A stretch of 64,000 bases of DNA from Candidatus Eiseniibacteriota bacterium (GTDB lineage: Bacteria > Eisenbacteria > RBG-16-71-46 > CAZAMP01): NCBI GenBank assembly GCA_965224245.1, contig OZ245046.1:3168001-3232000 (forward strand), read 5' to 3'. The stretch's first letter is position 1; the number at the start of each line of letters is the position of its first letter. Both the position numbers and the translations under genes were made by a program. This document shows, one piece after another, positions 2,108 through 31,123 of the stretch. The notes under the pieces are model-generated. The model did not search any database. It was not told the origin of the DNA and saw only the letters and a list, made by a program, of their open reading frames with translations.

Positions 2108-2130
2108 GACCCTCTCCTCCGTTCCAGGTT

Positions 2131-2212
2131 AGAAACCATTCGGTCAACAACTATTGGCTCGACGCCCCGAGACGGCCTTCGTGGCTAATTCGGAACCAAT
2201 CAGTCAACAATA
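2131..2212. promoter_or_regulatory. Two putative TetR operator sites upstream of the MMPL gene
   Basis: GAAACCATTCGGTCAACAA (2132-2150) and AATTCGGAACCAATCAGTCAACAATA (2187-2212) resemble the site at 2855-2880 upstream of the adjacent TetR gene. Confidence 0.6.
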
Positions 2213-2228
2213 CTGCTGCATGAAACCG

Positions 2229-2810
2229 TCACGCCCGAAGCGCGGACAGCATCAGATCGACGATGGACGAGCTCGTGAACGCCGGAGACGACTTCGAGAC
2301 CGCCACCAGACCCGCGGACGTCGTCATCAGGTAGGTCGCCAGCTCCCCCGCCGTCGCATCCTGCCGGAAGTCGCCCGCCACCTGTCCCTCCTCGAGGGTC
2401 GCCGTCAGCGCCCGCGCGACGCGCATCTGGTGGTGTCGCAGCGTCTCGCGAACCTCCTCGTCGTGCGGTGCGAGCTCGACCAGGGTGTTCACAGCGAGAC
2501 ACCCCTGCTGGACGGCGCCATCGCTTCCCAGTCGCTGCACGAGCTCCAGGTACCGCCGGATCGCCTCCACCGGTGAGGACGCTCCCTCGATCGCCGCCCG
2601 CATCTCCCCGTGCAGCTGATCCAGATAGCGGGTCAGCACGCGGACGAAGAGCGCGTGCTTGCTTCCGAAGGCCTTGTAGATGCTCCCTTTCTGGAGCCCC
2701 GTGGCCTTCATCAGGTCGGCAAGCGACGTGGCTTCGTATCCATGCTCCCAGAACGGCTGCATCGCGGCGTCCAGCGCCTCGTCGATGTCGAACTCTCGCG
2801 GGCGAGCCAT
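2229..2810 (-). CDS. TetR/AcrR family transcriptional regulator
   Basis: MARPREFDIDEAL...FWEHGYEATSLADLMKATGLQKGSIYKAFGSK HTH; GCL motif in the C-terminal domain; AGGAG RBS before ATG 2810. Confidence 0.93.
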   Translation of the reverse strand: MARPREFDIDEALDAAMQPFWEHGYEATSLADLMKATGLQKGSIYKAFGSKHALFVRVLTRYLDQLHGEMRAAIEGASSPVEAIRRYLELVQRLGSDGAVQQGCLAVNTLVELAPHDEEVRETLRHHQMRVARALTATLEEGQVAGDFRQDATAGELATYLMTTSAGLVAVSKSSPAFTSSSIVDLMLSALRA

Positions 2811-2854
2811 CTCGTCTCCTCGCATCCGGCTGACGGGTTGCCGGACGATACGCG

Positions 2855-2880
2855 AATTCGGAACCAAATGGTTCACAATA
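2855..2880. promoter_or_regulatory. Putative autoregulatory TetR operator
   Basis: AATTCGGAACCAAATGGTTCACAATA with palindromic core GAACCA-AA-TGGTTC, near-identical to 2187-2212. Confidence 0.6.
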
Positions 2881-2894
2881 TTGTCGCTCCGGCG

Positions 2895-4049
2895 TCACCG
2901 TGGGCGCTCCGGCGCGACCGGATCGACGCCCAGGGCCAGGCGTCCGCTGAGGACCATCTGGCGCCGCTTCGGCAACGGGTGAAAGTGCATGGCACGAACG
3001 TCACGCGCGATCCGCTCCACGACGTGCCCGCGCATGAAACCCGGACCGCCGACGAGCTCGACCGCCAGGTCGACGGTCGCATTGACGGCGTCGGTCACGA
3101 TCGACTTCCGGGTCAACATCTCGCTGCTGAGCGCCATCGACGGCGTGAATCCGTGATTCCCGTTCGCGCGGATCATGTCGGCCAGGCCCATCCTCGCGAT
3201 GGTGAGTGCATTCGTCATCTCACCCACGACCGTCGCCAGCTCGTGTCCCCGGAACCGTGCGGCCTCGATCGCGCGCTCGGCGGCGACCTCGGCCAGACCG
3301 ACGTAGGTCGAGGCAATCAACGGCAGGGCGGTGGGAATGATCACATCCCAGACCGGGTGCCACACGCCGGCCGGACGGCGCAACAGGATCGCGGCCTCGG
3401 GGACGAAGATCCCGTCGAGGATGACGTCGTGCGAGCCGGTTCCCCGCATGCCGAGCGCGTCCCAGGTGTCGACCCGCTCGACGCCCTCGTGGGTGAAGGG
3501 CAGGGCGACGTGCAGCACCTCCCCGCCGTCCTCGGTCTCGTGATGGACGCTCGTCACGAACAGCTGCGCCCCGGGCGAGCCGCTGACGAACCGCTTGTGC
3601 GCCGTGATGCGGAAGCCGCCGGGCACCCGTTCGGCCGTCCCCGACGACGAGAGCCAGTCGTTGGCTCCGGTGGTCGCGATGACCAGCTGTTCGTCCGCGA
3701 TCCGGCGGAGCGTCCTGGCGGCACCTTCGTCGCCCTGTGCGTGCTTGAAGACGTTGGCGCCCACCGGGTGCGCGTGCATGGCGAACGCGAGGGACGTGGA
3801 TCCGCACCCCCGCGCGAGGGTGCGGATCACGTCGCACGTCTCCTCGAACGTGGCCCCACCGCCTCCCAGCTCCGCGGGAATGCCGGCCCAGAACAGACCC
3901 GCCTCCCGGAGATCCCGGTAGTTCTCGTGGACGAACTCGCCGCTCGCGTCGTGCTCCGGTGCGCGCTCCCCGAATCGTTCGCTCAGATCCCGGGCCACGC
4001 TCACCCAGCGGGTACGATCTTCCGTCTGCTTCAGGCTCGCCGTGCTCAT
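2895..4049 (-). CDS. Acyl-CoA dehydrogenase-fold protein, likely the oxygenase of a two-component flavin-dependent monooxygenase
   Basis: HKRFVSGS and WDALGMRGTGSHDV motifs, ERIARDVR C-terminus; overlaps the stop of the upstream flavin reductase. Confidence 0.85.
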   Translation of the reverse strand: MSTASLKQTEDRTRWVSVARDLSERFGERAPEHDASGEFVHENYRDLREAGLFWAGIPAELGGGGATFEETCDVIRTLARGCGSTSLAFAMHAHPVGANVFKHAQGDEGAARTLRRIADEQLVIATTGANDWLSSSGTAERVPGGFRITAHKRFVSGSPGAQLFVTSVHHETEDGGEVLHVALPFTHEGVERVDTWDALGMRGTGSHDVILDGIFVPEAAILLRRPAGVWHPVWDVIIPTALPLIASTYVGLAEVAAERAIEAARFRGHELATVVGEMTNALTIARMGLADMIRANGNHGFTPSMALSSEMLTRKSIVTDAVNATVDLAVELVGGPGFMRGHVVERIARDVRAMHFHPLPKRRQMVLSGRLALGVDPVAPERPR

Positions 4050-14608: not shown

Positions 14609-17119
14609 ATGAGGACGTACATCTCGCCTCGCCGTCTCGGGGTCGTGCTCGTACAGGTGGCCATCTCGGTCAACAGCGTAGGAGCGGCCCCCGTAGGTAC
14701 AAGCGGCTGCACGCCACAACCCGATGGCTGCGGCAGTCCGTCCGCGCAGCTCGCCCAGGGTGACCACCGTATCGTGGATCCCTCGGGCAGAGCCGAGATT
14801 CCCTTCCAGATGTCAGGTCATCATGTTCTCGTCCCGGTCAGCGTGAACGATGGTGAGCCCTTCCTCGTCGTGCTCGACACGGGCATGCCCATCCGGGGCT
14901 TGATCCTCACTCCCGGCCCGCGAACCGACGCGCTTGAGCTCGAGAATCCGCACGGACTCCGCGTGGCCGGTGAAGGCAGCGATAGTCGCGACTCCCGGGT
15001 AGGGACCGGTGTCACCCTCACCTTGCCGGGCGTCCAGATCTCCGACCAGCTCGTGGCCGTCACGTCTCTTCCGGCCTGCGGCGGGAATGACGGACAGGAT
15101 CACCCGAACGACCCCCGCGTCGAGGGTGTGATCGGGCTGTCCATCTTCGAGCGATTCGTGGTGAGGATCGATCATGATCGGTCGCTCGTGACGCTCGTCG
15201 AGCCCGATCAGTTCCGTCACGACGGACGGGGACACGAGATCCCGATCACACTCGGGCCGACGAACATCCCCGAGATCAACTGTGAGGTGGAGATCGATCC
15301 GGGCGAAAGGGTACCGGTGACGATCGCCGTCGATACGGGTGCTGCCCTTGCTCTGTCGCTGACCCTGGGTACTCACGAGGATCTCCGGCTGCCCGCCGGT
15401 AGTCACGACTCCGTCACAGCCTACAGCGCGTGGGGCGAGGTGGAAGGTCGACTCGGAACGATTGCGGCCTTGCGGCTGGGGAAGCTCACCCTTCCCGACA
15501 TCCCGGTTGCGTTCTACCGAAAGGGCGACCCGGGAATCCCGCCCTGCGGCGAGCATGGCATCCTGGGGAACGCGACGCTCAGGCGATTCAACACGACCTT
15601 CGACTACGTCCGAAAACGACTCATCCTCGAGCCGAAGCAGCGGTCACACGAGCCCGTCACTGTCCCGGTGGGCAACCTTCGATCCTCGACGACCGACACG
15701 GCGGTCCCGGATTCGACGGACGAGCTTTCCGACTCCCAAGAGCTGGTCGAAGAAGTCGCTGCATTCGTTCAGCGCCAAGCCGACGAGGGGAAGTTCTCGG
15801 GCGCCGTCCTCGTCGCGAAGCAGGGAGTCCCGGTGTTCGAGGCCGCGCATGGCTTTGCAAGCCTGGATTACGAGGTCCCGAACCGGATCGACACCAAGTT
15901 CAACCTCGGCTCGATGAACAAGATGTTCACGAGTGTTGCCATCGCGCAGCTGGCCGAGCTCGGAAGGCTCTCCTTTGATGACCGGATCGTCGACCATCTC
16001 CCCGACTACCCGAACGTCGAGGTCGCCAGACAGGTCACGATCCACCACCTGCTCTCCCACACCTCGGGCCTGGGGAACTACTGGAGCGAGGAGTACGAGA
16101 GGACGTCGAAGGACCGCTTTCGCTCCGTCGAGGACTACCTTCCGCTCTTCGTCGATCAGCCTCTCCTCTTCGAGCCGGGTGCACGCTGGTCCTACAGCAA
16201 CGCGGGCTTCATCGTCCTCGGTCTCATCATCGAGCGCGTGTCCGGACAGAGCTACTTCGACTACGTCCGGGAGAACATCTACGAGCCTGCCGGCATGACG
16301 AACACCGACGCCTACGAGGTCGACCATGTCATCCGCAACGTGGCGGTCGGATACACCCGATCGGGTGAAAGGGAGGGGGAACTGAAGAACAACCTCTTCA
16401 TGCACGTCGTGAAGGGAGGGCCCGCCGGCGGCGGGTACTCCACGGTCGAGGATCTCCTGAGCTTCAGCAACGCCCTTCTGGACCATCGACTCGTGAGTCA
16501 GGAGATGACCGATCGGATCTTCGCGGGGCGTAGCGACACGACCCGGGTCGGTCCCGGCTACGGATACGGCTTCAGCCGTCTCCTCGAGAACGGTCATCTG
16601 ATCGTCGGGCATTCCGGTGGCTTCCCTGGCATCAACGCCCATCTCGACATGTACGTCGACCTGGATTACACCGTGGTCGTCATGTCGAACCTCGACAGGG
16701 GGGCAACCGAGGTCGAGGAGTTCATCCTGGTCCAGTTGATTGGGAAAACGCAGTGGATCAAAGATCGCGAGCTGACCGAAACGATCCTGGAACGGATCGC
16801 CGAGCGCGGGTACCACGCCGGTATCCAGCTCTACGAGGAAAGAAAGGGTGTCGGTACGGTCTCGGAGAGGAGAGTCAACCAGTTCGGATACAGTCTCCTT
16901 ACAGCCAACCGAATCCCGGATGCGATCGGAGTGTTCCGCTTCAACGTCCATCTGCACCCGGAGTCGTCGAATGCCTACGACAGCCTGGGTGAAGCCTACA
17001 TGATGGCGAACGAGATCGAGCTCGCAGTCCGTAACTACGAGAGGTCTGTCGCGCTCGACCCCGGAAACACGAACGGGTGGAACATGCTCGAGAAGCTGCG
17101 CGGTGAGTCGAGCCCATGA
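14609..17119 (+). CDS. Exported fusion: tandem retropepsin-like aspartic peptidase domains + beta-lactamase-fold serine hydrolase + TPR
   Basis: VLDTG and AVDTG with GVIG/GILG motifs; FNLGSMNK (SxxK), LLSHTSGL, YSN, GHSGG; C-terminal NAYDSLGEAY TPR. Confidence 0.85.
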   Translation: MRTYISPRRLGVVLVQVAISVNSVGAAPVGTSGCTPQPDGCGSPSAQLAQGDHRIVDPSGRAEIPFQMSGHHVLVPVSVNDGEPFLVVLDTGMPIRGLILTPGPRTDALELENPHGLRVAGEGSDSRDSRVGTGVTLTLPGVQISDQLVAVTSLPACGGNDGQDHPNDPRVEGVIGLSIFERFVVRIDHDRSLVTLVEPDQFRHDGRGHEIPITLGPTNIPEINCEVEIDPGERVPVTIAVDTGAALALSLTLGTHEDLRLPAGSHDSVTAYSAWGEVEGRLGTIAALRLGKLTLPDIPVAFYRKGDPGIPPCGEHGILGNATLRRFNTTFDYVRKRLILEPKQRSHEPVTVPVGNLRSSTTDTAVPDSTDELSDSQELVEEVAAFVQRQADEGKFSGAVLVAKQGVPVFEAAHGFASLDYEVPNRIDTKFNLGSMNKMFTSVAIAQLAELGRLSFDDRIVDHLPDYPNVEVARQVTIHHLLSHTSGLGNYWSEEYERTSKDRFRSVEDYLPLFVDQPLLFEPGARWSYSNAGFIVLGLIIERVSGQSYFDYVRENIYEPAGMTNTDAYEVDHVIRNVAVGYTRSGEREGELKNNLFMHVVKGGPAGGGYSTVEDLLSFSNALLDHRLVSQEMTDRIFAGRSDTTRVGPGYGYGFSRLLENGHLIVGHSGGFPGINAHLDMYVDLDYTVVVMSNLDRGATEVEEFILVQLIGKTQWIKDRELTETILERIAERGYHAGIQLYEERKGVGTVSERRVNQFGYSLLTANRIPDAIGVFRFNVHLHPESSNAYDSLGEAYMMANEIELAVRNYERSVALDPGNTNGWNMLEKLRGESSP

Positions 17120-17467
17120 CCGGTACCTGCGTCTACATTCGCGCCCGCATCTGGCGGGTGGCGAGCGTGTCGAAGCCGCTCAGCTCCGATGACGCAGCGG
17201 CTTCTCGATGCGCTGCAGGCGCATCGACACCTCCGGAGCGAGACGGTGCTCTACCGCGAGGACCGAGCGTCGCTCTCGATGAAGATCATCCAGGTCTACG
17301 TCGAGAGCGCCGCTCGACGCGTAAACCTGCGTCACAGGGGCGTGCACTGTCAAGCGACACCCAGTGTTACGCACTTAGGCGACACCGAGTCTTACGCACC
17401 TGAGTTCGGGATAAGTGGTTCTCCTTTCATCGTCTTACAGGCCCTCGGGAGTCAGCAAGCGACACCG

Positions 17468-18286
17468 TCAGGTGTCGCGCGCAGTTGAGGTCGTGTGAGC
17501 GGCCGTCGCGGCTCGTTCCAGGTCCCGGAGCCGGTAGCTCCGCCCGGCGATGTTCAGCACGTGACTGCGATGAAGCAGGCGATCGAGGATGGCCGTGGCC
17601 AGGATCTCGTCTCCGGCGAGGATCTCCGGCCAGTCTCGGATGCCCTTGTTCGTGGTGATGAGGATCGCGCCGCGCTGATAGCGATAGCTGACGAGCCGGA
17701 AGAACAGACTCGCCTCGTGCCGGTTCATCGGCTCGAACCCGACTTCGTCGATCACGAGCAGCGACACGTTCGCATACTTGCGTCGCCGGATCCTCGCCGG
17801 TGGCAGATCGGCATCGCGCCGTAGTGCGGCCAGCAGTTCTTCGAGTCGCATGAACGTGACGCCGAACCCGGCTTCGACCGCTCGGATGCCGAGCGCCACC
17901 GCCAGATGCGTCTTCCCGACTCCTGGCGGTCCCTGGATCAAGAGTGTCCGGTTCTCTCGGATCCACTGACACGTGGCCAGCGTCTCGATCCGCGAGCGCT
18001 CGATCGACGGCTGGAACGCGAAGTCGAAGTTCCCCAGCGTCTGTCCAGTGGGCAGACCGGAGAGCTTCAGCGAGGTCCGTACGCGACGCTCATCGCGGAA
18101 CGAGAGCTCTTCACCGAGCAGCTGATCGAGGAACCGTTGCGGCGGCATCTCCTCCTTGACCGCCTCGGCGATCAGGTGATCGAGCGACTCGGCCGCACGC
18201 GCCAGTCCGAGCTGCTCGAGCCGTTCCCGCGTCGTGTCCAGATCGAGTCGGGGCGTGATCTTCTTGGTCTTGGGGGTGCTGCTCAT
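17468..18286 (-). CDS. istB: IS21 helper ATPase
   Basis: FDFAFQP, GPPGVGKTHLA, LLVIDEVG, AILDRLLH, GRSYR; ATG overlaps the istA stop. Confidence 0.95.
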   Translation of the reverse strand: MSSTPKTKKITPRLDLDTTRERLEQLGLARAAESLDHLIAEAVKEEMPPQRFLDQLLGEELSFRDERRVRTSLKLSGLPTGQTLGNFDFAFQPSIERSRIETLATCQWIRENRTLLIQGPPGVGKTHLAVALGIRAVEAGFGVTFMRLEELLAALRRDADLPPARIRRRKYANVSLLVIDEVGFEPMNRHEASLFFRLVSYRYQRGAILITTNKGIRDWPEILAGDEILATAILDRLLHRSHVLNIAGRSYRLRDLERAATAAHTTSTARDT

Positions 18287-19542
18287 CGGGCCACCTCGGC
18301 GATCGCCGCGTACAGATCGACCGGACGCGCCTCGGGCACCATCTGGGCGATCTCCTCCAGACGTCGGCCCATCTTCCCCAGCGGGCGTGGAGCACGCACC
18401 GTGGCGGTGTCCTCGCCCTCGTAATGGGCCGGATCGATCACGATCCGCTCCTCCCCGTAGCGCGGATGCATCGCCACGATCGCACCCTCGCCCAGCATCT
18501 GCACCCGCTCGGCGCAGCCACGCACCTCGACCCGGCGACCCACGAACCGGAACGGCACCGAGTACTGTCGCCCCTCGAACGACACCAGACAGTCGTGGCT
18601 CACCGCCCGCATCACCACCACGTCGAACGGTTCGGGCTGGATCGGCAGTGCGCCCAGCAGCGGCTGCTCGCTCGCGTACGCGCTCATCACGCTCGTTCCC
18701 GTGCGCGGACACCGGCGGCGGTGTGCCGAGCGAACGCTCCTCTCGTCGGTCCAGCTCTGAAGCTCCACCAGCGAGTCCCAGTGACGGTCGCGAGGGTCGC
18801 TCCAGAAACGACCGTCACGGATGCGGCGTTCGATCTTCCCCTTCGTCCACGGCTCACGCGGCGGGCAGGCGTCGATGTGGAAGCGCACCACGCGGGCGTA
18901 CTGCCGGTACGACGGGTTGAGCTCGCCCCAGCACCCCGCACCGCGCGAGACCGCCGTCCGCTCGTTGTCCACGCGGATCGTGGCCGGCACGCCCTCCAGA
19001 CGCCGCAGCGCCTCGTTGTGCACGTGATGCCACGAGAGCTGGTCCTTGCGCCGCGACCACACCCGAACCGCGTACCGGCTGTAGCTCAGCTGAAGCTCGA
19101 ACGCGTACAGACGCTCGCGCCGGCCGCCGATCCACACGTCCCGCCACTCGCTCCAGTCCGCCTGCGCTTGCGCGCCCGGCGGGGTCTCCACGCGTCGGCG
19201 GGCGCGGCGCGCGGGCGTGGGGTAGTGCGTGCGAACGAAGCGCTGTACCGAGCGCAGGCTCCCCGTGTAGCGATGCTCCTCCTGGAGATGATCGTGAAGG
19301 GCGGCCACGTTGAGCGGACCGGTGCCACGGGACTCGATCCACCGCGTGATGGCCTCGGCGTGCGCGCTCGCCAGATGCGGCTGATCGGCCCGGCCGTCGT
19401 GGTCGCCCTGGCGGTGGCGTCGGAGATGGTAGCGAACCGTGCCCTCGGTCACGCCCAGCATGCGGGCGATCCGGCGAGACGAGTGACCCCGGTCCGACAA
19501 CGAGATGATGCTCATGCGATCCCCTCGATCGAGCTTGGCCAT
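18283..19542 (-). CDS. istA: IS21 transposase
   Basis: N-terminal HTH, ETPPGAQAQADW, RVDNERTAV, KGKIER, YSVP. Start chosen at ATG 19542 (GGAGG RBS); 19575 is possible. Confidence 0.93.
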   Translation of the reverse strand: MAKLDRGDRMSIISLSDRGHSSRRIARMLGVTEGTVRYHLRRHRQGDHDGRADQPHLASAHAEAITRWIESRGTGPLNVAALHDHLQEEHRYTGSLRSVQRFVRTHYPTPARRARRRVETPPGAQAQADWSEWRDVWIGGRRERLYAFELQLSYSRYAVRVWSRRKDQLSWHHVHNEALRRLEGVPATIRVDNERTAVSRGAGCWGELNPSYRQYARVVRFHIDACPPREPWTKGKIERRIRDGRFWSDPRDRHWDSLVELQSWTDERSVRSAHRRRCPRTGTSVMSAYASEQPLLGALPIQPEPFDVVVMRAVSHDCLVSFEGRQYSVPFRFVGRRVEVRGCAERVQMLGEGAIVAMHPRYGEERIVIDPAHYEGEDTATVRAPRPLGKMGRRLEEIAQMVPEARPVDLYAAIAEVAR

Positions 19543-19783
19543 GACGCCCTCCTCGATCGAGAGCGTCACAGACATAGGACTTACGCGATAGTGCGTAAAT
19601 CTGGGTGTCGCCTTAGCTCAACTCTGGGGTGTCTCTCTACAGTGCACGTCCTCAGGCACACGTTCTGTTCCCACCTGGCCATGCGGGGGGCCCCGGCCCG
19701 GGCGATCCAGGGTATCCGTTCGGTGAACCCATGTTGAGCCCATCGGCCGGTCCTGAGAACGTGCGCACCCGAGGAGGTGCCGC

Positions 19784-20140
19784 ATGCTCTCGAAGTCGAT
19801 CACGACCGCGCTCGCCCCGATCTCCGACAACCGCTACTGGCGGGAGTCGGACGCGGAACGCGCACTTGCCATCTGGAGCCAGAGTGGGCTCACACTGAAC
19901 GCCTTTGCGCGACAGTGTGGCCTCAGTGTGTCGCGACTGCGCCGCTGGAAGTCCAAGCTCGAGGCCGACGGCAGCCCCCGCTTCCACCCGGTCGAGATCG
20001 TGGAGACGGCTGACGCCGACGTGGCCGACTCCGACGCCGGTATCGAGCTCATCGTCGGACAGCGCCACCGGATCGTCGTCCGCCGCGGCTTCGATCGCAC
20101 GCTGCTACACGAGCTCATCGAGGCGCTCGATCCGTGCTGA
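19784..20140 (+). CDS. tnpA: IS66 accessory HTH protein
   Basis: WSQSGLTLNAFARQCGLSVSRLRRWK HTH; first ORF inside the IS66 ends. Confidence 0.85.
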   Translation: MLSKSITTALAPISDNRYWRESDAERALAIWSQSGLTLNAFARQCGLSVSRLRRWKSKLEADGSPRFHPVEIVETADADVADSDAGIELIVGQRHRIVVRRGFDRTLLHELIEALDPC

Positions 20141-20514
20141 CCCTGCCGCACACCGTGCGCATCTACATCGCCGCTGAGCCCGTCGATCTCCGCAAGGGCT
20201 TCGACGGGCTCTCGGCGGCCACGCGCGAGATCATCTCCGCCGATCCCCTCTCGGGACACCTGTTCGTGTTCATCAACCGGCGCGCGAACCGGATGAAGAT
20301 CCTCGTCTGGCAGCCCTCGGGCTATCTCCTCGTCTACAAGCGCCTCGAACGCGGCCGCTTCACGCTCCCGCGCCACCCCGAGGTCGGGTCCTCGCACGTC
20401 GAGATCGAGTCGTCGGAGCTGACGTTGCTCCTGGATGGGATCGATCTTCGCGGCTCCCAGCGCCGGAGTCGCTGGTCGCCGAAGAAGGGACTTGCCTGGC
20501 GCGCGACGATGTGA
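20134..20514 (+). CDS. tnpB: IS66 accessory protein
   Basis: PVDLRKGFDGL, LFVFINRR, YKRLERGRF, LLLDGID. Confidence 0.93.
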   Translation: MLTLPHTVRIYIAAEPVDLRKGFDGLSAATREIISADPLSGHLFVFINRRANRMKILVWQPSGYLLVYKRLERGRFTLPRHPEVGSSHVEIESSELTLLLDGIDLRGSQRRSRWSPKKGLAWRATM

Positions 20515-20526
20515 TTCAAAGAGTGC

Positions 20527-22140
20527 ATGACCTTCGCGCAACTCACTCGTGAACTCGAGCGCTTCCGCTCCGAGCTCCAGACGCTGGCCGCCAACGGCCG
20601 TACCGATGACGCGATCGAGAAGGCGTTCGAGCGCATGCGCCTGCTCCTGCACCGGAACCTCCATCTCGAGCTGGCGCTGTTCGCCGAGCGTCGCAAGCGC
20701 GCGGGGATCCGGAGCGAGAAGGTGGACCCGGCTCAGCTGTTGTTGATGTTGGCCAAGATGCCCGAGAACAACGTCGATCCCGAGAACGATCTCGACGACA
20801 CCGAGACCGACGATGCGCAGCTGACGGAGGAGATCGCGGCGGCCGAAGCGGCGTTGCCGAGTCCGCCGACGCGGCGGCCCCGCCGGCAACGGCTCCCCGA
20901 GACACTCCCACGCGAGATCGTGACCCACACGCTGCCGGAGCAGGATCTGCCTTGCGGCACGTGTGGCGTTCCGATGAAGGCGATCGGCGAGGACGTGAGC
21001 GAGATCCTGCGCCTGGTCCCCGCCCGGTTCGAGGTCGAGGAGCACCGTCGCACGAAGTACGCGTGTTCGACGTGCAAGGACGCGGTGGTCACCGCGCCGG
21101 GGCCCGCCAAGTTCATCGACAAGGGTCGTGCGGCGCCGAGCCTCTTGGCGCACGTCGTTCAAGCGAAGTACCAGGACCACATCCCGCTGGCGCGGCTGAG
21201 CGAGATCTACGCCCGCGGCGGGGTCGCGATCGCGCGCTCCACGCTCTGCGACTGGACGGCGCGCGTGGCCGAGGAGCTACGGCCCATCGCCGAGCGGATC
21301 TGGGAGAAGGCGTTCCACGCGCACACGCTGCAGAGCGACGCGACCGGGCTGCGGGTGCTCGATCGTGACGACCCGAACGGGGTGCGGATGGGCACGATGT
21401 GGTGCGCCATCGGGGATGGGACGTACGCGGCGTTCCACTACGCGAAGACCGGCACGGGCGAGGACGGCCCGTGGCGCTTCCTGGCGGGCCGCGAGGGCTA
21501 TCACCAGGCGGACGCGGCGACGGTCTACGATCGGGTGTACAACGGCGAGGTGGCCAGCGCGATCGAGGTCGGCTGCTGGGCGCATGCCAGGCGGGGCTTC
21601 GAGGCGTTGCGCGACACGGACTCTCGCGTGGCGTATCCGCTGAAGCTGATCGCGCAGCTGTATCGAGTGGAGACGCTGGCCGATCGGCGTGGGCTCGATC
21701 CCCCCGAACGCCAGGAGCTCCGCACCGAGCGCAGCCGAGCGATCCTGGATCGGCTCGATCGATGGATCGTGCGAACCGAAGAGTCCGAGCCGCCCGAGAG
21801 CGCGCTGTCGAAGGCGTGCGGGTACGTCGTGAATCAACACGACGCGCTCTGGTGCTTCCTCGACGACGGACATCTGCCGTTGGACAACAACCTGTGCGAG
21901 CGGCAGTTGAGAGCGGTCGCCGTCGGTCGGAAGAACTACCTGTTCGCGGGATCCGACCGGGCCGCCCAGCGCGCGGCGATCCTCTACTCCGTCGTGCGCA
22001 CCGCCGCGCTGGCGAAGATCGACGTCTACGCGTATCTCATCCGCGTTCTCGAGCGCATCGCCGATGGGTGGCCCGACGCCAAGATCGACGAGCTGCTGCC
22101 CGAGAACCACGTTCCCTGCTACGAAGCAGACCCCAGGTAG
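20527..22140 (+). CDS. tnpC: IS66 transposase
   Basis: LPETLPRE, CxxC zinc finger, KYQDHIPLAR, DAT, CWAHARR, DNNLCERQLR, GRKNYLF. Confidence 0.95.
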   Translation: MTFAQLTRELERFRSELQTLAANGRTDDAIEKAFERMRLLLHRNLHLELALFAERRKRAGIRSEKVDPAQLLLMLAKMPENNVDPENDLDDTETDDAQLTEEIAAAEAALPSPPTRRPRRQRLPETLPREIVTHTLPEQDLPCGTCGVPMKAIGEDVSEILRLVPARFEVEEHRRTKYACSTCKDAVVTAPGPAKFIDKGRAAPSLLAHVVQAKYQDHIPLARLSEIYARGGVAIARSTLCDWTARVAEELRPIAERIWEKAFHAHTLQSDATGLRVLDRDDPNGVRMGTMWCAIGDGTYAAFHYAKTGTGEDGPWRFLAGREGYHQADAATVYDRVYNGEVASAIEVGCWAHARRGFEALRDTDSRVAYPLKLIAQLYRVETLADRRGLDPPERQELRTERSRAILDRLDRWIVRTEESEPPESALSKACGYVVNQHDALWCFLDDGHLPLDNNLCERQLRAVAVGRKNYLFAGSDRAAQRAAILYSVVRTAALAKIDVYAYLIRVLERIADGWPDAKIDELLPENHVPCYEADPR

Positions 22141-22363
22141 GCCTCACCCGACAGCGCGCCGGGACACGGGCTGATCACCCGGATGGGATGCCCGAACGGT
22201 TACGATCCAGGAGCTCGCCGGACACCGGGATCTCACGACGACCCAGCGGTACATGCACCTCAGCCCGGCCGCGCTCGACAGCGCGATCCGGCTGCTCGAG
22301 AGTGGAGACATACTGGAGACGGAGGAAACGGATTCTTCGGTCAGCCACTCGCAACAAGAGAAG

Positions 22364-22392
22364 TGGTGGAGGCGGCGGGAATCGAACCCGCG
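22364..22392. repeat. Duplicate of the tmRNA 3' end (att core)
   Basis: TGGTGGAGGCGGCGGGAATCGAACCCGCG is identical to 28446-28474, the reverse complement of the tmRNA T-arm/acceptor end. Confidence 0.92.
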
Positions 22393-22473
22393 CATCCATG
22401 AAACACTAACTGGTTGATGGCGCACGACTTCCAACGCAGCCGCCCAGCAACCAACAACTTAGGATAGCGAATC

Positions 22474-22537
22474 GAGTCCGCAGGAGTCCACACGAGTCCC
22501 CAACAGTCGACCCCAGTCATGGAGAAATAGTGGAGAC
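22474..22537. repeat. Phased AGTC repeats and integrase arm-type site
   Basis: AGTC at 22475, 22485, 22495, 22505 and 22515, then TGGAGAAATAGTGGAGAC (22520-22537), which matches TGGAGACATACTGGAGAC at 22303 and 28385. Confidence 0.7.
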
Positions 22538-22569
22538 GAAGAACGACCGGTCCCCGTGCTGGCCCAGTC

Positions 22570-25030
22570 TCAGAAGCCGTACTTGTCCTTTCTCAAGATG
22601 AATGCCTTCTCTCCTCCCTCCATGACCTGAGTGATCCTCCCCCGGATTTCGTTCACGTCGATCGCGCCCGTTCCTGCGATTCTTCCCATCGAATGATCGC
22701 CCGATTGTCGGTAGCCAAAGCATGCGACGAGCTCGGCGTCGCCGTTTACGACCAGGTTGGCGTTGTGGCTAGCAAATATGAGCTGCCTCCGTCTTTTCGC
22801 CTTCCAGACCTGCTCGACTACATCAAGGACTACTTGGTTGTCGAGGTCGTCCTCCGGTTGGTCAATGATGAGTGGCGGGCCCTCCTGATTCAACAGGGTC
22901 TTAAGGAGCGCCGTCGCCTGTTGGCCCGCCGACGCATCGACGAAGGGAATATGTTCGTCCTCGCGGACCTTGTACTCGAATGCGGGTCGGTCCTCGAAGG
23001 GCGTTACTGCGAGTTCGCGCCATGCACTTATCGTTAGCTTGGCGGCGATGCGCTTCCGCTCCGGCTCAGTCCACTCGAGCAGCTTCAGCTTCGGTGTCTC
23101 GGGTAGTTCTGTTGCTTCCTCGGCATCGTGCAATGCCAGCAGTTCCAGCTCTGCTAGCACTGCTTCCCATTCCTCAAGTGGGTCTTTGACCTTCTGTATT
23201 CGCTCGGTAAGGGCGTCGACTTTTGCCCGACCGAGCCTTGCTCCAGCCACTGCAGTGCGGAGTTTCTCTGCGATCGAACTGAATCCTGCGCCCTCTTCAA
23301 GTCCGGCTCGAATGGTCCTTTGCGATGCCTCGGTCAGTGCCTTGCACTGATCCTTGAGGAGCTTTGTTCGCCTCTTGTGTATGTCTTTCCAACTCTTTCT
23401 CAGCTCGCCGTAGGCCCCCACCGGATCGCCCAGCTCCTGAAGCTCTTGTTTGTGCTCTTGCAGGGTTCTGCGCGTTTCCGCTAGTCGCTTCTCGAGTTTC
23501 GAAAGTTCGTTCAACTGTGTCTCGTGCGCCGAGGCCCGCTTCTTCGCTTCCTCGTACCGCTTTTCGAACGCTTCTTTCGTCTCCGACCAGTGCTGCTTCG
23601 CGGCGCTGATGGAGCCATCCCGAGCTTCTTCAAACCGCGTCGTCATTTCTTGCAGGTCAGTTCGCAACTGCTCGTACAGGGCTGTCATGGCTCTTTCGAT
23701 GGTTGCGAGATCTTCGCTCCCTGGGAGGTCGCCAATCGCCTCTTCTGGCTTCGTTGGGAGACTCTCTAGTGCATCATTGAGCGCCCCAAGGGCCTCTTGT
23801 GTGCCACTGAGATCCGCGTCCCAGACATCGACAATAGCGGCCGCATCGTCGTGCGGTTGCTTGCTCTCGATAGTAGCTTGGTCGTCCGGAGTCAGATTCT
23901 TGAATGACTCGCGTATCGTCCGTACTTGCTTCGTCAACGATTGAACTGCCAACTCGTCTCGAGCAATGTAGCGACCGAGACTGCGTGCCTTCTCTACGTG
24001 CACGAGGATCTCCCGGATCGCCTCTGCGATCTTCTCGAGCTCCGCGTCGCTCTTGGCAAGCTTCTCTCGAATCGGTGCCTCTACGAAACGTGCAAGCTCC
24101 TCGATGCGGATCGCGACATTGCTCAGTTGCTTCTGACTGAAGGCCTGAACAGGCAAGAGCGCTCGAATATCAGCTTCTGAGCAGTCGCGGAACTCCTCGT
24201 CTCCAATGCGAAGGAGCGTCTCGCCCGTACTTGATTGACGTCGGACGTGATGCGGGAGTCCATTTGCCACAAACCGTACGTCGACCGTAGCATTGAGCGG
24301 AACTAGCGTCTTCTGGATCAGAGTCTGCCGCCGTGCTACGTAGTTGGGCACCTCTGCACCAAGTTCAGTGGGTATCTCCGGCGGCTGATCGCATAGGGCC
24401 CATCGCAGATATTCAAGCAGTGTCGACTTTCCGGTTCCGCGGCCACCGATGAGCGCCGAGTACTGCGGGTTCATCACTAGATTGACGGGACCGAGGAACT
24501 GGCTGTTCTTCACTGTGACTTCGGTGATGGTCGCGCTGGGCAACTCAGGCGCTTGATGACTGATTCGTGACTCCTGGGCTAGGCACGCCTGCCGCAGTGC
24601 CTCGGCTGTGGGCTCTGCCCACTTCACCCAGGTCGACCACTTACCGAGTTCGTCGTGCGTACTGCTTCGTGTGTCTGATGTTTGGAAGACGGCGATGCGC
24701 TTGCTGCCCCAGTTTGCGTCGCGCCCTGCATGGATGTTTCGCGTGCCCTCTTTCAGCTTACTGATCCCGCCATCGACGAAGCCGCCCACGCACGGCATGT
24801 TCTTGTACTTTGCATACATCTTCCGTCGGAGCAGTGAATGCTCCCTATTCTCGTCTCCGACGTTCGGCAGCAGAATGTACCGGCCCCGAAGGTAATCATG
24901 CCCATCAAGTGCGTCACAGACATCGGACAGCGACTCGAATGCAATCGCTTTGACCTCTGGGCCCCTCTCATCCTGCGGATCGTGTGCAGTTAGCTTGAGG
25001 GCATGCAGTGCCAAGTCGAAGAGGTCCTGC
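22570..25030 (-). pseudogene. 5'-truncated PHP-domain + SMC/ABC-type ATPase (TrlF/Ppl-like, probable anti-phage gene)
   Basis: Walker A GGRGTGKS, long coiled coil, SAGQ signature, PLIIDQPEDDLDN, SHNAN; partial PHP C-terminus (FQTSDTRS...TWVKW). Native start replaced by the IS3 end at 25031. Confidence 0.75.
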
Positions 25031-25080
25031 TGAACCACGCCGGGTTTGCCGGAGGGTGTATTCCTTGAGAGGATACCTCC

Positions 25081-26414
<1,334 letters not shown>

Positions 26415-26444
26415 CCAGCTCTCCGGAGAACCCGGTACGGTTCA

Positions 26445-26804
26445 ACGCGTGCGGCGACTAGTTTGTTGGTTGAGAAGTTTGAGGCGTTGAGCTGGGTCGT
26501 GGTGCGTGAGGGCGTGCTGCGCGCGGCTGATGGTGCTGCGAAGCAGGTCGATCTGCTCTTGCGTGATCTTGATGGCGTTGCTGTTTCGTGCGAGGTGGCG
26601 GGTACTGCTGCGCACGAGTGTCATAACGCTCTGTTTGTGTTGCGGGCGGTCGAGCGTGTGCGGCTTCACGTGGTGGTTTGCTTGTCTGGTGATGTGTTGC
26701 GTGTTGTGAAGCAGCGCTTCGTGGCGGAGCCGTTGTTGGCTTCGGACGTTCGTGTTCGTGTCGTGAGCTTGCCTGAGGCGTTGCGTCCTGAGTGGGTCCC
26801 ATAG
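26445..26804 (+). pseudogene. 3' remnant of an unknown gene, possibly PD-(D/E)xK-like
   Basis: Frame stays open from the IS3 right end to TAG at 26804; KQVDLL...AVSCEV pattern; strong G/T skew. Confidence 0.4.
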
Positions 26805-27132
26805 GCATGGAGCTGCTTGGGGACTTTCCGGTGAGTGTGGCGTGGCCGTGTGGGTGTGGGGGTGCGGTGGTGTGGTGGTTGGTGCGGTGGCTTGCTGGTT
26901 GGTTGCTGTGTTCGTTCGTGTTCGTGTTCTTTCTCTTTCTTTTTTTGGGGGCCGGCCCCGATTGATATCGGGTCCTTTTGTGGGCCGGCCCATGGCCGAT
27001 GTTCTTTGGTGATGGCCCTTCGGGCTGGCGGCGTGCCGCCGTTGGCGTTGGGGCCTACCGGCCTGATGTCTTTGTTTCTTGGATGTTGGGGATAGAAGTC
27101 CGACCGGGAAACAGAACGTATTCGAGGGGCTT

Positions 27133-27339
27133 GTGAGACCGGCTACCCTCCCATACCTCCTGACCGCGGATGAAGTAGCGGAATTGCTACGTACGTCGCG
27201 ACGAGCCGTTTACGCCCTCGTCGAGCGGGGCTCGGTCCCTGGGGTCGTTCGGGTCGGCCGGAGGCTTTTGATCCGTCGGGACGAGCTGCTAGCCTGGCTC
27301 GATGGAGGTCGTGCGCCATCGCCGAAGGAGCGGCGATGA
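27133..27339 (+). CDS. xis: Excisionase-like HTH (HTH_17/Xis) protein
   Basis: LLTADEVAELLRTSRRAVYALV..G..P.VRVGRRLLIRRDELLAWL; ATGA overlap with int; GTG start after GAGGGG. Confidence 0.85.
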   Translation: MRPATLPYLLTADEVAELLRTSRRAVYALVERGSVPGVVRVGRRLLIRRDELLAWLDGGRAPSPKERR

Positions 27340-28511
27340 GCGTCAGAATCCGACGATACCGATCGGGGGGCTGGGAGGCCGACATCCGCGTGACCCGTCC
27401 CGACGGGACGGTGATGCGCGAGCGTCGAAAGGCACCGGTCCCCTCGAAATCAGGAGCCAAGCGCTGGGCGGAAGCCCGTGCACAAGAGCTCTTGCGCAAC
27501 GGTACGCAGCCACGAAAGGAGGTTCCCACACTCGCCGAGTTCGCTCCGCGGTTCCTGGATGGCTATGCGCGAGCGAACCGTCAGAAGCCGAGCGGCGTTG
27601 CAGCAAAAGAGTCCGTGCTCCGGGTCCATCTGATCCCAGCACTCGGCGGACGAGAGCTCGATCGGATCCGGACGGAGGACGTCCAGCGCCTCAAGGTCAA
27701 GCTCGGCAAGCGTGCACCGAAGACCGTGAACAACGTGCTCTCGGTGCTCAGCACCTTGCTCAAGGTGGCCAAGGAGTGGGACGTGATCACTCACGTACCG
27801 TGCACGATCAGGCTCGTGAAGGTCCCGCAGAAAGAGGCGGCGTTCCACGACTTTCACGAGTACGAGCAACTCGTCACGGCGGCACGGAGCATCGATCCCC
27901 AGGCGTACATCGTCGTGCTGCTTGGCGGTGATGCGGGCCTGCGGCTCGGGGAGATGCTCGCGCTCGAGTGGACGGACATCGACTTCGGACGCAACCGGAT
28001 CCGCGTGGAGCGGGCGACCTGGAAGCACGCAGAGGAGTCCACGAAGAGTGGGCGGAGCCGCTCAGTCCCGATGACCCAGCGGCTTCTCGATGCGCTGCAG
28101 GCGCATCGGCACCTCCGGAGCGAGAAGGTGCTCTGCCGCGAGGACGGAGCGCCGCTCTCGATGAAGATCATCCAGGTCTACGTCAAGAGCGCGGCTCGAC
28201 GCGCAAACCTGCGTCACAGGGGCGTACACGTCCTCAGGCACACGTTCTGTTCCCACCTGGCCATGCGGGGGGCCCCGGCCCGGGCGATCCAGGAGCTCGC
28301 CGGACACCGGGATCTCACGACGACCCAGCGGTACATGCACCTCAGCCCGGCCGCGCTCGACAGCGCGATCCGGCTGCTCGAGAGTGGAGACATACTGGAG
28401 ACGGAGGAAACGGATTCTTCGGTCAGCCACTCGCAACAAGAGAAGTGGTGGAGGCGGCGGGAATCGAACCCGCGTCCGAGAGTGCGTCCCCGTGAACCCC
28501 TACGTGCGTAG
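27336..28511 (+). CDS. int: Tyrosine recombinase / phage-type integrase
   Basis: GLRLGE (R), TK, HVLRH, AGH and TTQRY catalytic residues; the ORF runs through the att core into the antisense of ssrA. Confidence 0.95.
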   Translation: MSVRIRRYRSGGWEADIRVTRPDGTVMRERRKAPVPSKSGAKRWAEARAQELLRNGTQPRKEVPTLAEFAPRFLDGYARANRQKPSGVAAKESVLRVHLIPALGGRELDRIRTEDVQRLKVKLGKRAPKTVNNVLSVLSTLLKVAKEWDVITHVPCTIRLVKVPQKEAAFHDFHEYEQLVTAARSIDPQAYIVVLLGGDAGLRLGEMLALEWTDIDFGRNRIRVERATWKHAEESTKSGRSRSVPMTQRLLDALQAHRHLRSEKVLCREDGAPLSMKIIQVYVKSAARRANLRHRGVHVLRHTFCSHLAMRGAPARAIQELAGHRDLTTTQRYMHLSPAALDSAIRLLESGDILETEETDSSVSHSQQEKWWRRRESNPRPRVRPREPLRA

Positions 28512-28800
28512 TCTACCGTTTGATCTCGCCTAGGCGGCTCTGGTAGACAGGATCCGCTTCGGCCAGCTCGTCTGAAATCTCGCGCCGGTGCACCGAGCGG
28601 ACACCGACGCCAGCCTATCTATATGGCGTTCATCCCCCGACCGACAGGCCGAGCCGAAGGTGAACGTCGCGGACTAGTTAAGCCGCGAGGGCCATCTCGT
28701 GAGAGTTGGCAGTTGAGTTTTCCCGCCTGTTTAACGAGGCCTGCGGGGACCTCGGCACGCGATTCACGCTTCGTCACCCCCGTCGAAACCAAGCGCCCCC
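28446..28800 (-). ncRNA. ssrA: tmRNA; tag peptide (A)ANSHEMALAA* (28678-28710)
   Basis: 5' GGGGGCGCTTGGTTTCGACGGG; 3' GGGTTCGATTCCCGCCGCCTCCACCA; G3-U acceptor pair; tag reading frame ends ALAA-TAA. Confidence 0.96.
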
Positions 28801-28986
28801 AACGTGTTGTCGGCGGGAGCCGTCATCGACGGCGTCCGCCCGGGGCGAGCCCGGGCGCAGCCATGGTAACGCCAAACGGGTGGAAAGTGTTCCGAAACTC
28901 GCCCGACGGAGTCCCGACCGGATCCCCGGCGCCGACGCGAGGCGCCCGATGATCCGTCTTCCTGCATCCCCCTCGTTCGGAGCCGA

Positions 28987-29586
28987 TCAGGACTCGTCCG
29001 GGGCCACCCAGTGCGCGTCGGCCTTTGCACGGATGCTCTCCGGATCGGCGTCGAACGCCTGCTTCGCGTCTTCCGACGAGAAGAAGAACGTCTTGCCGTC
29101 GGTGACGGTGAAGATACCCGGGTCTCCCTGAACCTCTTGCCCCATGGACAGGGCGGTCGCACACAGCCCCCCGTAGACCACGTCGTAGGCGTGGGCAGCG
29201 GGATCAGCCTCGAACATCTTCCTGGCCTCGGCCGAGGAGAAGAGGTACGTGACGCCGTCCCGGACGACGAAGAGCGTCGGGTCGCTCTCGACTCGCTGGT
29301 TCACGGCCGCGGCGGTCGCGCACCAGCCATCGTACGCCACGTCATACGCGGCAGGATCGGCCTCGAACATCCGGCGGGCGTCCGCATTGGCGAACAGGTA
29401 GTGGTGACCGCGATACTCCAGCAAAAGCTCGGGGTCGCCCTTCACCGCCTGTCCCATGGCCACGTATGCGACCGGGCAGTACCCGTGGAGGGCGGGCTCA
29501 CCCATCTCGACCTCTTCCGCCATCGCGGCGCCGGCGACCGAAGCAACCGCGCCGGCGGTCAACAGAGCACGTACGGTCCGAAGCAT
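28987..29586 (-). CDS. Exported YHS-domain protein (three repeats)
   Basis: Signal peptide MLRTVRALLTAGAVASVAGAAMA; GYCPVAY, YDGWCAT and YGGLCAT repeats, each followed by YLF/FFF...FEADP/FDADP; GGAGGAG RBS. Confidence 0.8.
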   Translation of the reverse strand: MLRTVRALLTAGAVASVAGAAMAEEVEMGEPALHGYCPVAYVAMGQAVKGDPELLLEYRGHHYLFANADARRMFEADPAAYDVAYDGWCATAAAVNQRVESDPTLFVVRDGVTYLFSSAEARKMFEADPAAHAYDVVYGGLCATALSMGQEVQGDPGIFTVTDGKTFFFSSEDAKQAFDADPESIRAKADAHWVAPDES

Positions 29587-30116
29587 GTCTCCTCCTCGGT
29601 GGGATCCTCGCCCGGCCGTCAACGCCCCTGCCGCACCGTGCGGACAGGTCGCTCGAAGGGTTGGTGAGCCGATGAGCGTCTTCCTTACACGCGCCTCGCA
29701 TGGTCCTGGTGTACACGGCGGCGGACCGAGCTCGATCGGCCATTCGGGAACCGCGCCGGCGCGCCCACGGGGAACCAGCGGATGCGGTGCTTCACCCACC
29801 ATCGTTCACCTGGGTACGGAAGGGTCACGTGACCGATCGCCGCGACGCGGGTCATCCCCCGGCAGCCCGCCGCGATCTCCGATAGGCTCGGTCGGCACGT
29901 CGAACCGGCCGGTCAAGACGGTCACCGGCACGAGCCCGAGGCCTTCGAGGACCTCGGCGAGAGCACGCTCGTGAAGGGCAAGACGACGGATTCATGATCC
30001 TGATTCACGAGTTCGGGCACCTCGTGCGGTACCTCGAGGACGAGCCCGGTTACGAGTCGAAGCGCATGACCAGCTACGTCGAGCAGATGATCGCGCGCGG
30101 GAGCCTCGGAGACGAG

Positions 30117-30192
30117 TGGTGCGCCATCAGGGACTCGAACCCCGAACCCACTGATTAAGAGTCAGTTGCTCTACCAGTTGAGCTAATGGCGC
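30117..30192 (-). tRNA. tRNA-Lys(CTT)
   Basis: GCGCCATTAGCTCAACTGGTAGAGCAACTGACTCTTAATCAGTGGGTTCGGGGTTCGAGTCCCTGATGGCGCACCA cloverleaf. Confidence 0.97.
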
Positions 30193-30283
30193 ACGTGCAG
30201 GACGGCAGGCGGAGGACCATACCGATCCGCCGAGGTCGCGTCAAGCCTCGGCGGCGGTGTACGACTCCCGGCGGGAAGAGACC

Positions 30284-30335
30284 GCTCGTGATCGTTCGCG
30301 ACGATCGATCACGAGCGATCGATCACGAGCGATCG
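30284..30335. repeat. GATC-rich hairpin / 14-bp tandem repeat downstream of ssb
   Basis: GCTCGTGATCG pairs with CGATCACGAGC; CGATCGATCACGAG occurs twice in tandem. Confidence 0.45.
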
Positions 30336-30336
30336 G

Positions 30337-30762
30337 TCAGAACGGAAGGTCGTCGTCGCCGCCCAGATCGTTGGCCTCGGGGACGGAGCCCGCGGGGACC
30401 GAGTCGCGATCTCCGCCGCCCCCACCGCCTCCGCGTCCGCCGAGCATCAGCATGTTCCGGCCCACGACCTCGGTGGTGTACTTGTCGTTGCCCTGCTGAT
30501 CCTGCCACTTGCGCGTCTGGAGGCGTCCCTCGATGTAGACCTGGCTGCCCTTGCGCAGGTACTGCCCCGCGGTGTCGGCCGTGCGGCCGAAGAGGACGAC
30601 GCGGTGCCACTCGGTGCGCTCTTCCCACGAGTCGCCGACCTTGACCGACTCGGTCGTGGCCAGGCGCAGGTTGGCGACCGACACGCCGGACTGCGTGTGC
30701 CGCACTTCGGGATCGAACCCGAGATTGCCGACCAGGATGACTTTGTTCACTCCGCGTGCCAT
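30337..30762 (-). CDS. ssb: Single-stranded DNA-binding protein
   Basis: [37 protein letters not shown] tail. Confidence 0.98.
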
Positions 30763-30878
30763 GAGATTGCTCCTCGAGGATCGTCGAACGTCGGGTTCGG
30801 GCCGGCTGAGAGCGGTTGCCGGGTGCGGCGCGTCTCCGCGCCCAGGAGTCTACCGCCCGGGCGGGCCCGGGCAAAGGG

Positions 30879-30907
30879 TTGACACCCCATCGGCGGCTAT
30901 CTACCGT
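30879..30907 (+). promoter_or_regulatory. Sigma70 promoter for tRNA-Pro/tRNA-Arg
   Basis: TTGACA-17bp-TACCGT. Confidence 0.6.
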
Positions 30908-30952
30908 CTTCCGCCAGCCGTGTGGGCCCGTTCCAGGGGGTTCGCACCTCGT

Positions 30953-31029
<77 letters not shown>

Positions 31030-31046
31030 CTCGCCTTCCGACGTGC

Positions 31047-31123
31047 GCGCCCGTAGCTCAGCTGGATAGAGCAGCGGACTTCTAATCCGCAGGTCCCGCG
31101 TTCGAATCGCGGCGGGCGCGCCA
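31047..31123 (+). tRNA. tRNA-Arg(TCT)
   Basis: GCGCCCGTAGCTCAGCTGGATAGAGC...CTTCTAA...GTTCGAATC...GGGCGCGCCA. Confidence 0.97.

Follow-up and report, generated by a model that had tools for sequence, protein, structure and literature searches.

An integrase gene whose reading frame crosses its attachment core into the antisense strand of a tmRNA gene in a Candidatus Eiseniibacteriota genome

We analysed 64,000 nt of the genome of a Candidatus Eiseniibacteriota bacterium (assembly GCA_965224245.1, contig OZ245046.1, positions 3,168,001 to 3,232,000; this whole stretch is called the window, and coordinates count from its first letter), in which a tyrosine integrase gene, intB, runs without a stop codon through its attachment (att) core and into the antisense strand of ssrA, the gene for transfer-messenger RNA (tmRNA). 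The 3' end of the gene is present twice, with two different endings, which the original prediction took for the two states of a switch in which integration exchanges the C-terminus of the integrase (Int) and the tmRNA antisense sequence supplies a possible degradation signal (degron). The observation is confirmed and its structural reading is right, but the switch and degron interpretation is unsupported and probably wrong. We propose instead, with considerable confidence, that the locus carries a standard attP of the lambda type which overlaps int, and that the extension arose by chance, as read-through tolerated in a disordered tail, and not as a selected switch.

The integrase would accordingly be a two-site (heterobivalent) tyrosine recombinase of the lambda type, with an attP that overlaps the 3' end of its own gene. 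One arm pair (two copies of TGGAGAC with an 11-bp period), which the N-terminal domain would bind, lies within int some 45 nt short of the core; the core corresponds to the last 26–29 nt of the targeted tRNA or tmRNA, and another arm pair follows about 130 nt past the core. Nearly all relatives stop within the short spacer between arm pair and core, and in the window a 43-nt spacer with no in-frame stop carries the open reading frame (ORF) across the core, leaving the sequence beyond it to set the last residues (11 when integrated, 7 when excised). We infer from the repeats that Int binds them, and likewise that the extension is neutral.

Overlap of intB with the tmRNA gene

The 391-aa product of intB (27336..28511, + strand, from the ORF list) matches PF00589 over residues 173–337 (E = 5.1e-32) and also PF14659, and residues R203, H298, R301, H324 and Y333 are invariant in an alignment of 27 sequences (intB and 26 homologues). 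Its AlphaFold2 model (mean pLDDT 80.5) has the two-lobed fold of core-binding and catalytic domains, with Foldseek matches to the Tn1549 integrase (6.4e-14), XerA and lambda Int (6.6e-13). The start codon overlaps the stop of the preceding gene (ATGA), which encodes an HTH_17 protein, probably the excisionase (xis; 27079..27339, + strand, coordinates from the ORF list; PF12728 at 6.4e-15), and this overlap is intact. The tmRNA gene (28446..28800, – strand; ARAGORN, tag ANSHEMALAA) is convergent with int and matches Rfam RF00023 over its full length including the CCA (199.7 bits, model positions 1–374).

As had been claimed, int has no stop ahead of the 29-nt att core and reads on into antisense tmRNA. 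The overlap with the tmRNA 3' end is 66 nt, the last 22 codons of int being antisense tmRNA, and the stop is a TAG at 28509–28511, beyond the tmRNA 3' end. The core, TGGTGGAGGCGGCGGGAATCGAACCCGCG, occurs exactly twice in the window, with no match in 100 shuffles. The right copy (28446..28474, + strand) is the antisense of the last 29 nt of tmRNA, comprising the T arm, the 3' strand of the acceptor stem and the CCA, and provides int codons 371–380; the left copy (22364..22392, + strand) matches it exactly. Each forms the end of a 190-nt exact direct repeat (22203–22392 and 28285–28474), with a 161-nt copy of the int 3' end preceding the left core, and the identity breaks off right at the T-arm 5' edge (28474). 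At the tmRNA gene the ORF ends ...KWWRRRESNPR-PRVRPREPLRA* (391 aa), and at the left junction the fragment 22203..22417 (+ strand, 100% identical to 28285–28474 up to the core) ends ...KWWRRRESNPR-IHETLTG*, with its stop at 22415–22417, corresponding to a protein of 387 aa if taken in the full-length frame. Both endings were thus reproduced exactly as first given. The antisense core is open in all three reading frames, and therefore any int without a stop in the 43-nt spacer reads through it.

The residues concerned lie in a part of the protein that is predicted to be disordered: in the model, 10-residue block means of pLDDT from residue 341 are 35–52, and pLDDT is low from residue 343 on, with values below 50 at 343–348, 351–365 and 378–391.

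Probable arm-type sites at the 3' end of int

The locus is best explained, on its sequence layout, as two small islands lying in tandem at the tmRNA gene's 3' end, in the order remnant island A, core, island B (22393–28445), core plus tmRNA. Within int, a tandem repeat TGGAGAC-ATAC-TGGAGAC (28385..28402, + strand) encodes G-D-I-L-E-T and is separated from the core by 43 nt, a spacer that in the family is more usually 44–49 nt and most often 45 nt. A second copy lies in the left int fragment (22303..22320, + strand), and a further tandem repeat, TGGAGAA-ATAG-TGGAGAC (22520..22537, + strand), is intergenic, on the other attP arm, 127 nt past the left core. The pattern GGAGAN6GGAGAC occurs three times in the window against 0.11 expected, at the two int ends and at 22521–22537.

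The same arrangement is found at three loci of the family with no adjacent tRNA or tmRNA gene (L003, L027, L068), which are attP forms: pair 1 is followed at about 45 nt by a 26-nt fragment from the 3' end of a tRNA or tmRNA, and this at about 130 nt by pair 2. Arm pair, core and second arm pair span 217 nt in the window and 217–222 nt in these loci; the pair-to-pair spacing of 217 nt equals that of L027 and is close to those of L068 and L003. Repeated arm-type sequences distinct from the core are found on both attP arms at fixed distances, and judged by the order of arms and core the left junction has attP geometry. An island–island junction in a tandem array carries attP sequence, and 22364–22417 was therefore fairly called attP-like. 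L030 is an integrated counterpart, with attL and pair 2.

A further motif, CTAAC..TGATGGCG..GACTTC, is present on the far attP arm just past the core (window 22405–22435) and also in L003, L027, L068 and L030, despite their different tRNA and tmRNA targets; it may be a candidate site for Xis or a host bending protein. In L030, positions 1–3700 look like a complete integrated mini-island of about 3.4 kb, with a 3' piece of tRNA-Ser together with the second arm pair at about 30–195, and int with its arm pair lying against tRNA-Ser at 3626.

The arm site is itself coding sequence, as the original prediction stated. Most homologues have in common a peptide G-D-I-L/V-E-T-G near the C-terminus, and this is encoded by the tandem direct repeat TGGAGAC-N4-TGGAGAC with its 11-bp period. 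An exact pair of 7-mers at an 11-nt period was found in 50 of 79 rows of the family scan, compared to 1 of 79 shuffled rows and none of 79 mid-gene controls, and in most rows the pair ends 43–49 nt before the target. The two units of a pair covary: 32 rows have TGGAGAC twice (peptide GDILET), seven have TGGCAAC twice (GNMLAT) and three have two units of GGGGCAA type (GNIGAM or GNTGAT). The repeat is kept where a stop codon falls inside it (L015, L024, L045, L057), where it lies downstream of the stop (L022, L023) and where it stands in another reading frame (L050, L063, L065, L095). Since it survives out of frame and past stops, and its units covary, selection acts on the DNA and not on the peptide. 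The pairs are most likely arm-type Int sites and, read from these patterns, the GDILET peptide simply follows from DNA sites that the gene has to accommodate in its coding sequence.

We had also considered GDILET as a motif acting at the protein level, for example in a tail exchanged between protomers; the out-of-frame and post-stop repeats, together with the covariation of the units, led us to reject it. The case calls for caution when reading protein motifs at integrase C-termini.

The domain that would recognize these sites is modelled over residues 1–54 as three strands (2–7, 13–20 and 26–32) and a helix (38–54), with 10-residue block means of pLDDT 82–89, and the Foldseek alignment of the whole model with full-length lambda Int (1z1b) covers 355–359 columns; residues 1–65 have no match to an arm-domain family in Pfam. 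Residue 14, in the second strand (GGW-E-VD; window 27375–27377), is E or D in each of the 56 rows that fall outside the GGCAAC/GGGCAA group; the four rows with GGCAAC or GGGCAA arms in place of GGAGAC all have Q, T or M. These counts cover 60 of 85 rows, and two of the rows left out (L032, L060) have GGCAAC arms and Q14. When N-domain and tail are left out of the tree, the four rows are scattered; the best tree needs four changes, of which the starred branches force at least two, too few for the sign test to reach significance (p = 0.5). Residue 14 is a suggestive candidate for a contact that sets arm specificity.

Together these features make up an attP map (arm pair, spacer of about 45 nt, core of 26–29 nt, spacer of about 130 nt, second arm pair) for a large, undescribed family of integrases that target tRNA and tmRNA genes, mostly in metagenome-assembled genomes (MAGs) of Acidobacteriota and Eisenbacteria, and the map helps to delimit such islands in MAGs.

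Stop positions in the integrase family

The search for homologues of intB returned 4398 at E ≤ 1e-20, the best 120 being 58–67% identical. We examined 80 genome loci, mostly in MAGs of Acidobacteriota/Vicinamibacterales and Eisenbacteria, with tRNA and tmRNA genes annotated, and counted a locus as targeted if a convergent tRNA or tmRNA gene lay within 400 nt of the catalytic tyrosine. At 66 of the 80, int points towards the 3' end of a convergent tmRNA (27) or tRNA gene (39; Asp, Ser, Gly, Gln, His, Met, Lys and SeC), and none was nearby at the other 14. Convergence is common to all 66 loci and so is not special to the window.

At 64 of these 66 loci (39 tRNA, 25 tmRNA) int stops before the target, and the proportion is 25 of 27 for tmRNA targets alone. 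That homologues usually stop before att was the outcome named in advance as counting against a switch, and it is the outcome found. The gap from stop to target is 0–210 nt, most commonly 11 nt (17 of 66), and the tail past the catalytic tyrosine is 26–105 aa long (median 38), the window having 59 aa. Only L050 and L063 read through, by 77 and 185 nt and in a frame other than that of the window, giving a tail '...LVEAAGVEP...' against '...WWRRRESNP...'. A tail resembling that of the window was found at a junction with a tmRNA fragment (L025), where 'KWWRRRES' reads across 20 nt of tmRNA, and among the 120 best database homologues there is one clear case (P0120) and two that are doubtful.

Many loci (for example L008, L032 and L033) have a conserved box like TAGAACANGTTA in the last 14 nt before the tRNA or tmRNA 3' end, and in the 17 loci with an 11-nt gap the TAG of this box is the int stop. 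The window reads CGCAACAAGAGAAG there, and its int frame therefore stays open.

In the genome of the window itself only intB and its fragments were found. A homologue was present in 5 of 60 related genomes, the best of them at 67% identity, and no closer relative was found in any of the searches. Relatives on viral contigs are at most 50% identical, except for a broken fragment (L101; 61% over 136 residues), and among the nine examined of 80 viral loci the phage-borne L097, L102 and L105 (38–50% identity) retain the arm pair, and their int genes terminate ahead of the core. The annotated phage integrases showed no close sequence relation: the 15 best of 238 such matches are at most 31% identical, and phage Mx8 is not among them.

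Alternative explanations

Some findings weigh against an ordinary attP with accidental read-through. Read-through recurs (the window, L050, L063, L025 and P0120), and at tmRNA targets only; the closest relative available for comparison is 67% identical to intB; and the residue-14 covariation rests on four events, at least two of them forced, with its sign test at p = 0.5. The complete identity of the 190-nt repeats suggests recent activity, hence that the extended Int works, which fits neutrality and function equally well.

It is unlikely that the extension is instead a defect, with a long basic tail that impairs Int in a decaying island and intB on its way to becoming a pseudogene. An IS3-family insertion sequence (IS) in the island abuts the cargo gene, the neighbouring int copy has been broken by two IS elements, and the tail is atypical among the loci of the family, all of which would fit decay; however the ORF is intact with all its catalytic residues invariant, the overlap of xis and int is preserved, and the 100% identity of the 190-nt repeats suggests a recent event.

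We find it harder still to credit a recombination-state switch, in which the two tails would differ in stability (through LRA as a degron) or in activity, as in phage Mx8 of Myxococcus. The two endings are real in the sequence, read-through recurs at the tmRNA targets of L050, L063, L025 and P0120, and precedents exist in Mx8, whose attP lies within int so that a new 3' end modifies the integrase (review PMC6070905), and in the C-terminal proteolysis signal of the Int of mycobacteriophage BPs (PMC4557955). Against this, 64 of 66 homologous loci stop before their target, and the tails that do read through are in different frames, with no peptide in common. The only residues that differ between the states are the last 11 or 7, past the usual end of the family, where pLDDT is low, and the 15 best phage matches of 238, all at most 31% identical, do not include Mx8. 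Neither ending (LRA or LTG) is, we presume, a signal like the -LAA of the ssrA tag, which we also count against a switch. With 64 of 66 loci stopping short, L050 and L063 in another frame, and a tail that is hypervariable and predicted to be disordered, the degron proposal finds no support.

There is accordingly only a slim chance that the read-through is put to use, the common KWWRRRESNPR and its state-specific ends (PRVRPREPLRA in the chromosome, IHETLTG in the circle) altering the stability or activity of Int. If it were, this would be a minimal, independently evolved switch of the Mx8 kind, with the antisense strand of the host tmRNA supplying the tail of the prophage state, and it would give Mx8 an independent companion as an integrase that its own integration alters; the evidence, however, points away from this. 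A family-wide effect of a different sort might be that Int, bound to arm sites in its own 3' coding region, feeds back on its own expression.

That the left junction is a by-product of IS-mediated or homologous rearrangement, which would make its 'excised-state' ending meaningless, is highly improbable: three IS elements do lie within 10 kb, the identity of the int copies climbs from 93% to 100% towards the core as gene conversion could also produce, and one depth-2 contig joins 17194 to 28077, but the second arm pair stands past the left core with the 217-nt spacing of the independent attP-form loci (217–222 nt), the CTAAC..GACTTC motif is held in common with them, and the block of identity extends precisely as far as the T-arm 5' edge (28474).

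Comparison with known systems

Taken as an analogy, the arm sites of lambda together with its sib element are the nearest working parallel to the attP that we propose. In both systems the integrase has two domains, attP carries tandem arm-type repeats on each arm, the int 3' end adjoins attP, and the sequence downstream of int depends on the integration state (in lambda through sib retroregulation; some of these lambda facts are quoted in PMC2951348). The arm pair of the window differs in lying inside the int ORF, where it dictates a peptide motif, and no sib-like RNA element is in evidence there.

In Mx8 a large C-terminal segment of the integrase is reportedly replaced on integration, whereas in the window only the very end of a disordered tail changes (11 residues against 7). 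The arrangement is also not conserved in the window's family, with read-through at 2 of 66 loci, in another frame, and one clear case among 120 proteins. The likeness is one of anatomy, since in the window too the int ORF contains the att core and integration changes the C-terminus. On integration intP of Mx8 becomes intX. The attP of Mx8 lies within int, and integration makes a recombinant gene with a new 3' end, which modifies the integrase (review PMC6070905).

The original prediction also drew a parallel with mycobacteriophages that use integration-dependent C-terminal degrons. This stands in part: the Int of BPs does bear a C-terminal proteolysis signal, but its attP lies in the repressor gene and not in int (both from PMC4557955). 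In integration-dependent immunity of the BPs type (clusters G, I, N and P) the gene that is split is the repressor, whose virally encoded form carries an ssrA-like degron at its C-terminus, whereas the attP of the window overlaps int, the Int endings are ...LRA and ...LTG, and no repressor was found among the island ORFs scanned (with Pfam, with PADLOC for the cargo ORF, and including a 183-aa ORF with no Pfam match).

The KplE1 integrase IntS and the 'InTr shape' classes of integrase–tRNA modules are alike in that att and the int gene unit partly overlap, and the int–tRNA orientation has been classified across genomes (PMC2951348). The overlap in KplE1 is with the int promoter and serves autoregulation, whereas int in the window converges on its target and overlaps att at its 3' coding end. 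Islands at the 3' ends of tRNA and tmRNA genes, including tandem arrays at ssrA, are said to have been treated by K. Williams, with a sublocation from the T arm to the 3' end and int adjoining the target, features that the locus in the window shares. No description of the arm-in-ORF layout of this integrase family was found in the literature searched, which did not extend to the main earlier papers on islands in tRNA and tmRNA genes.

Structure of the island array

The younger island (22393–28474 including the core, 6.1 kb) contains a Ppl-like ATPase gene, an IS3-family element, xis and int. The int of the older island is a pseudogene in three pieces, cut by IS21- and IS66-family elements. Piece 1 (17171..17347, + strand) is 93% identical to 28053–28229 (repeat D2) and is followed by the IS21-family element (17348..19641, – strand), which encodes IstA and IstB (PF01695 at 8.4e-69, with rve and Mu-transpos_C_2) and has inverted repeats and contig breaks. 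Piece 2 (19642..19711, + strand) is 99% identical to 28224–28293 (repeat D4) and is followed by the IS66-family element (19712..22202, + strand; PF03050 at 3.3e-71, with contig breaks at 19712 and 22203). Piece 3 (22203–22392) is 100% identical to intB. The homologous pieces overlap by 6 and 9 nt at the points of insertion, and these overlaps are probably target-site duplications. The IS21, IS66 and IS3 elements all lie within 10 kb, two of the three inserted in the older int.

The ATPase (22570..25167, – strand) is an ABC/SMC-like protein of 865 aa (PADLOC Ppl at 1.8e-37; Pfam AAA_23, AAA_21 and SMC_N) and is the sole cargo gene, so that besides int and xis this minimal defence island has a single gene. 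At its 5' end the ATPase gene runs into the left end of the IS3-family element (25031..26444, + strand; orfA and orfB with an ALIL frameshift pseudoknot; Pfam HTH_Tnp_1 and rve, Rfam RF01497 at 114.3 bits, contig breaks at 25031 and 26444), and the ATPase may have been truncated by this overlap. Between the IS3 element and xis is a GT-rich stretch of low complexity with short tandem repeats (26442–26993; D8, D13), within which lies the minus-strand 183-aa ORF that has no Pfam match.

Read evidence came from four runs of one study over 16500–29500, as short-read contigs that all break at repeats, and the breaks in these public contigs coincide with the IS21 and IS66 boundaries. One contig of run X1 joins 22390 to 28452, with 27 letters on its shorter side, inside the 190-nt exact repeat, and is uninformative on excision. 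Depth is similar over the unique part of the island (about 10–13) and the flank (about 12–17) in runs X1 and X2. A depth-2 contig of run X3 joins 16698–17194, reaching into the older int piece, to 28077–28314 in intB at homologous positions, and represents either a variant without the intervening DNA or a chimeric assembly.

Directly to the left of the older int fragment, in a stretch of lower GC content (0.61–0.64), is an 836-aa ORF (14609–17119, + strand) with an aspartyl-protease domain, a beta-lactamase-fold domain (5.7e-63) and TPR repeats, which may be cargo of the decayed island. On the other side, the gene order in 28446–31123 is tmRNA, tRNA-Lys(ctt), tRNA-Pro(tgg), (tRNA-His), tRNA-Arg(tct). 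The window has this order in common with the Eisenbacteria loci L007 and L012 and with L031, from a MAG labelled 'uncultured bacterium', which hints at the lineage to which the window belongs.

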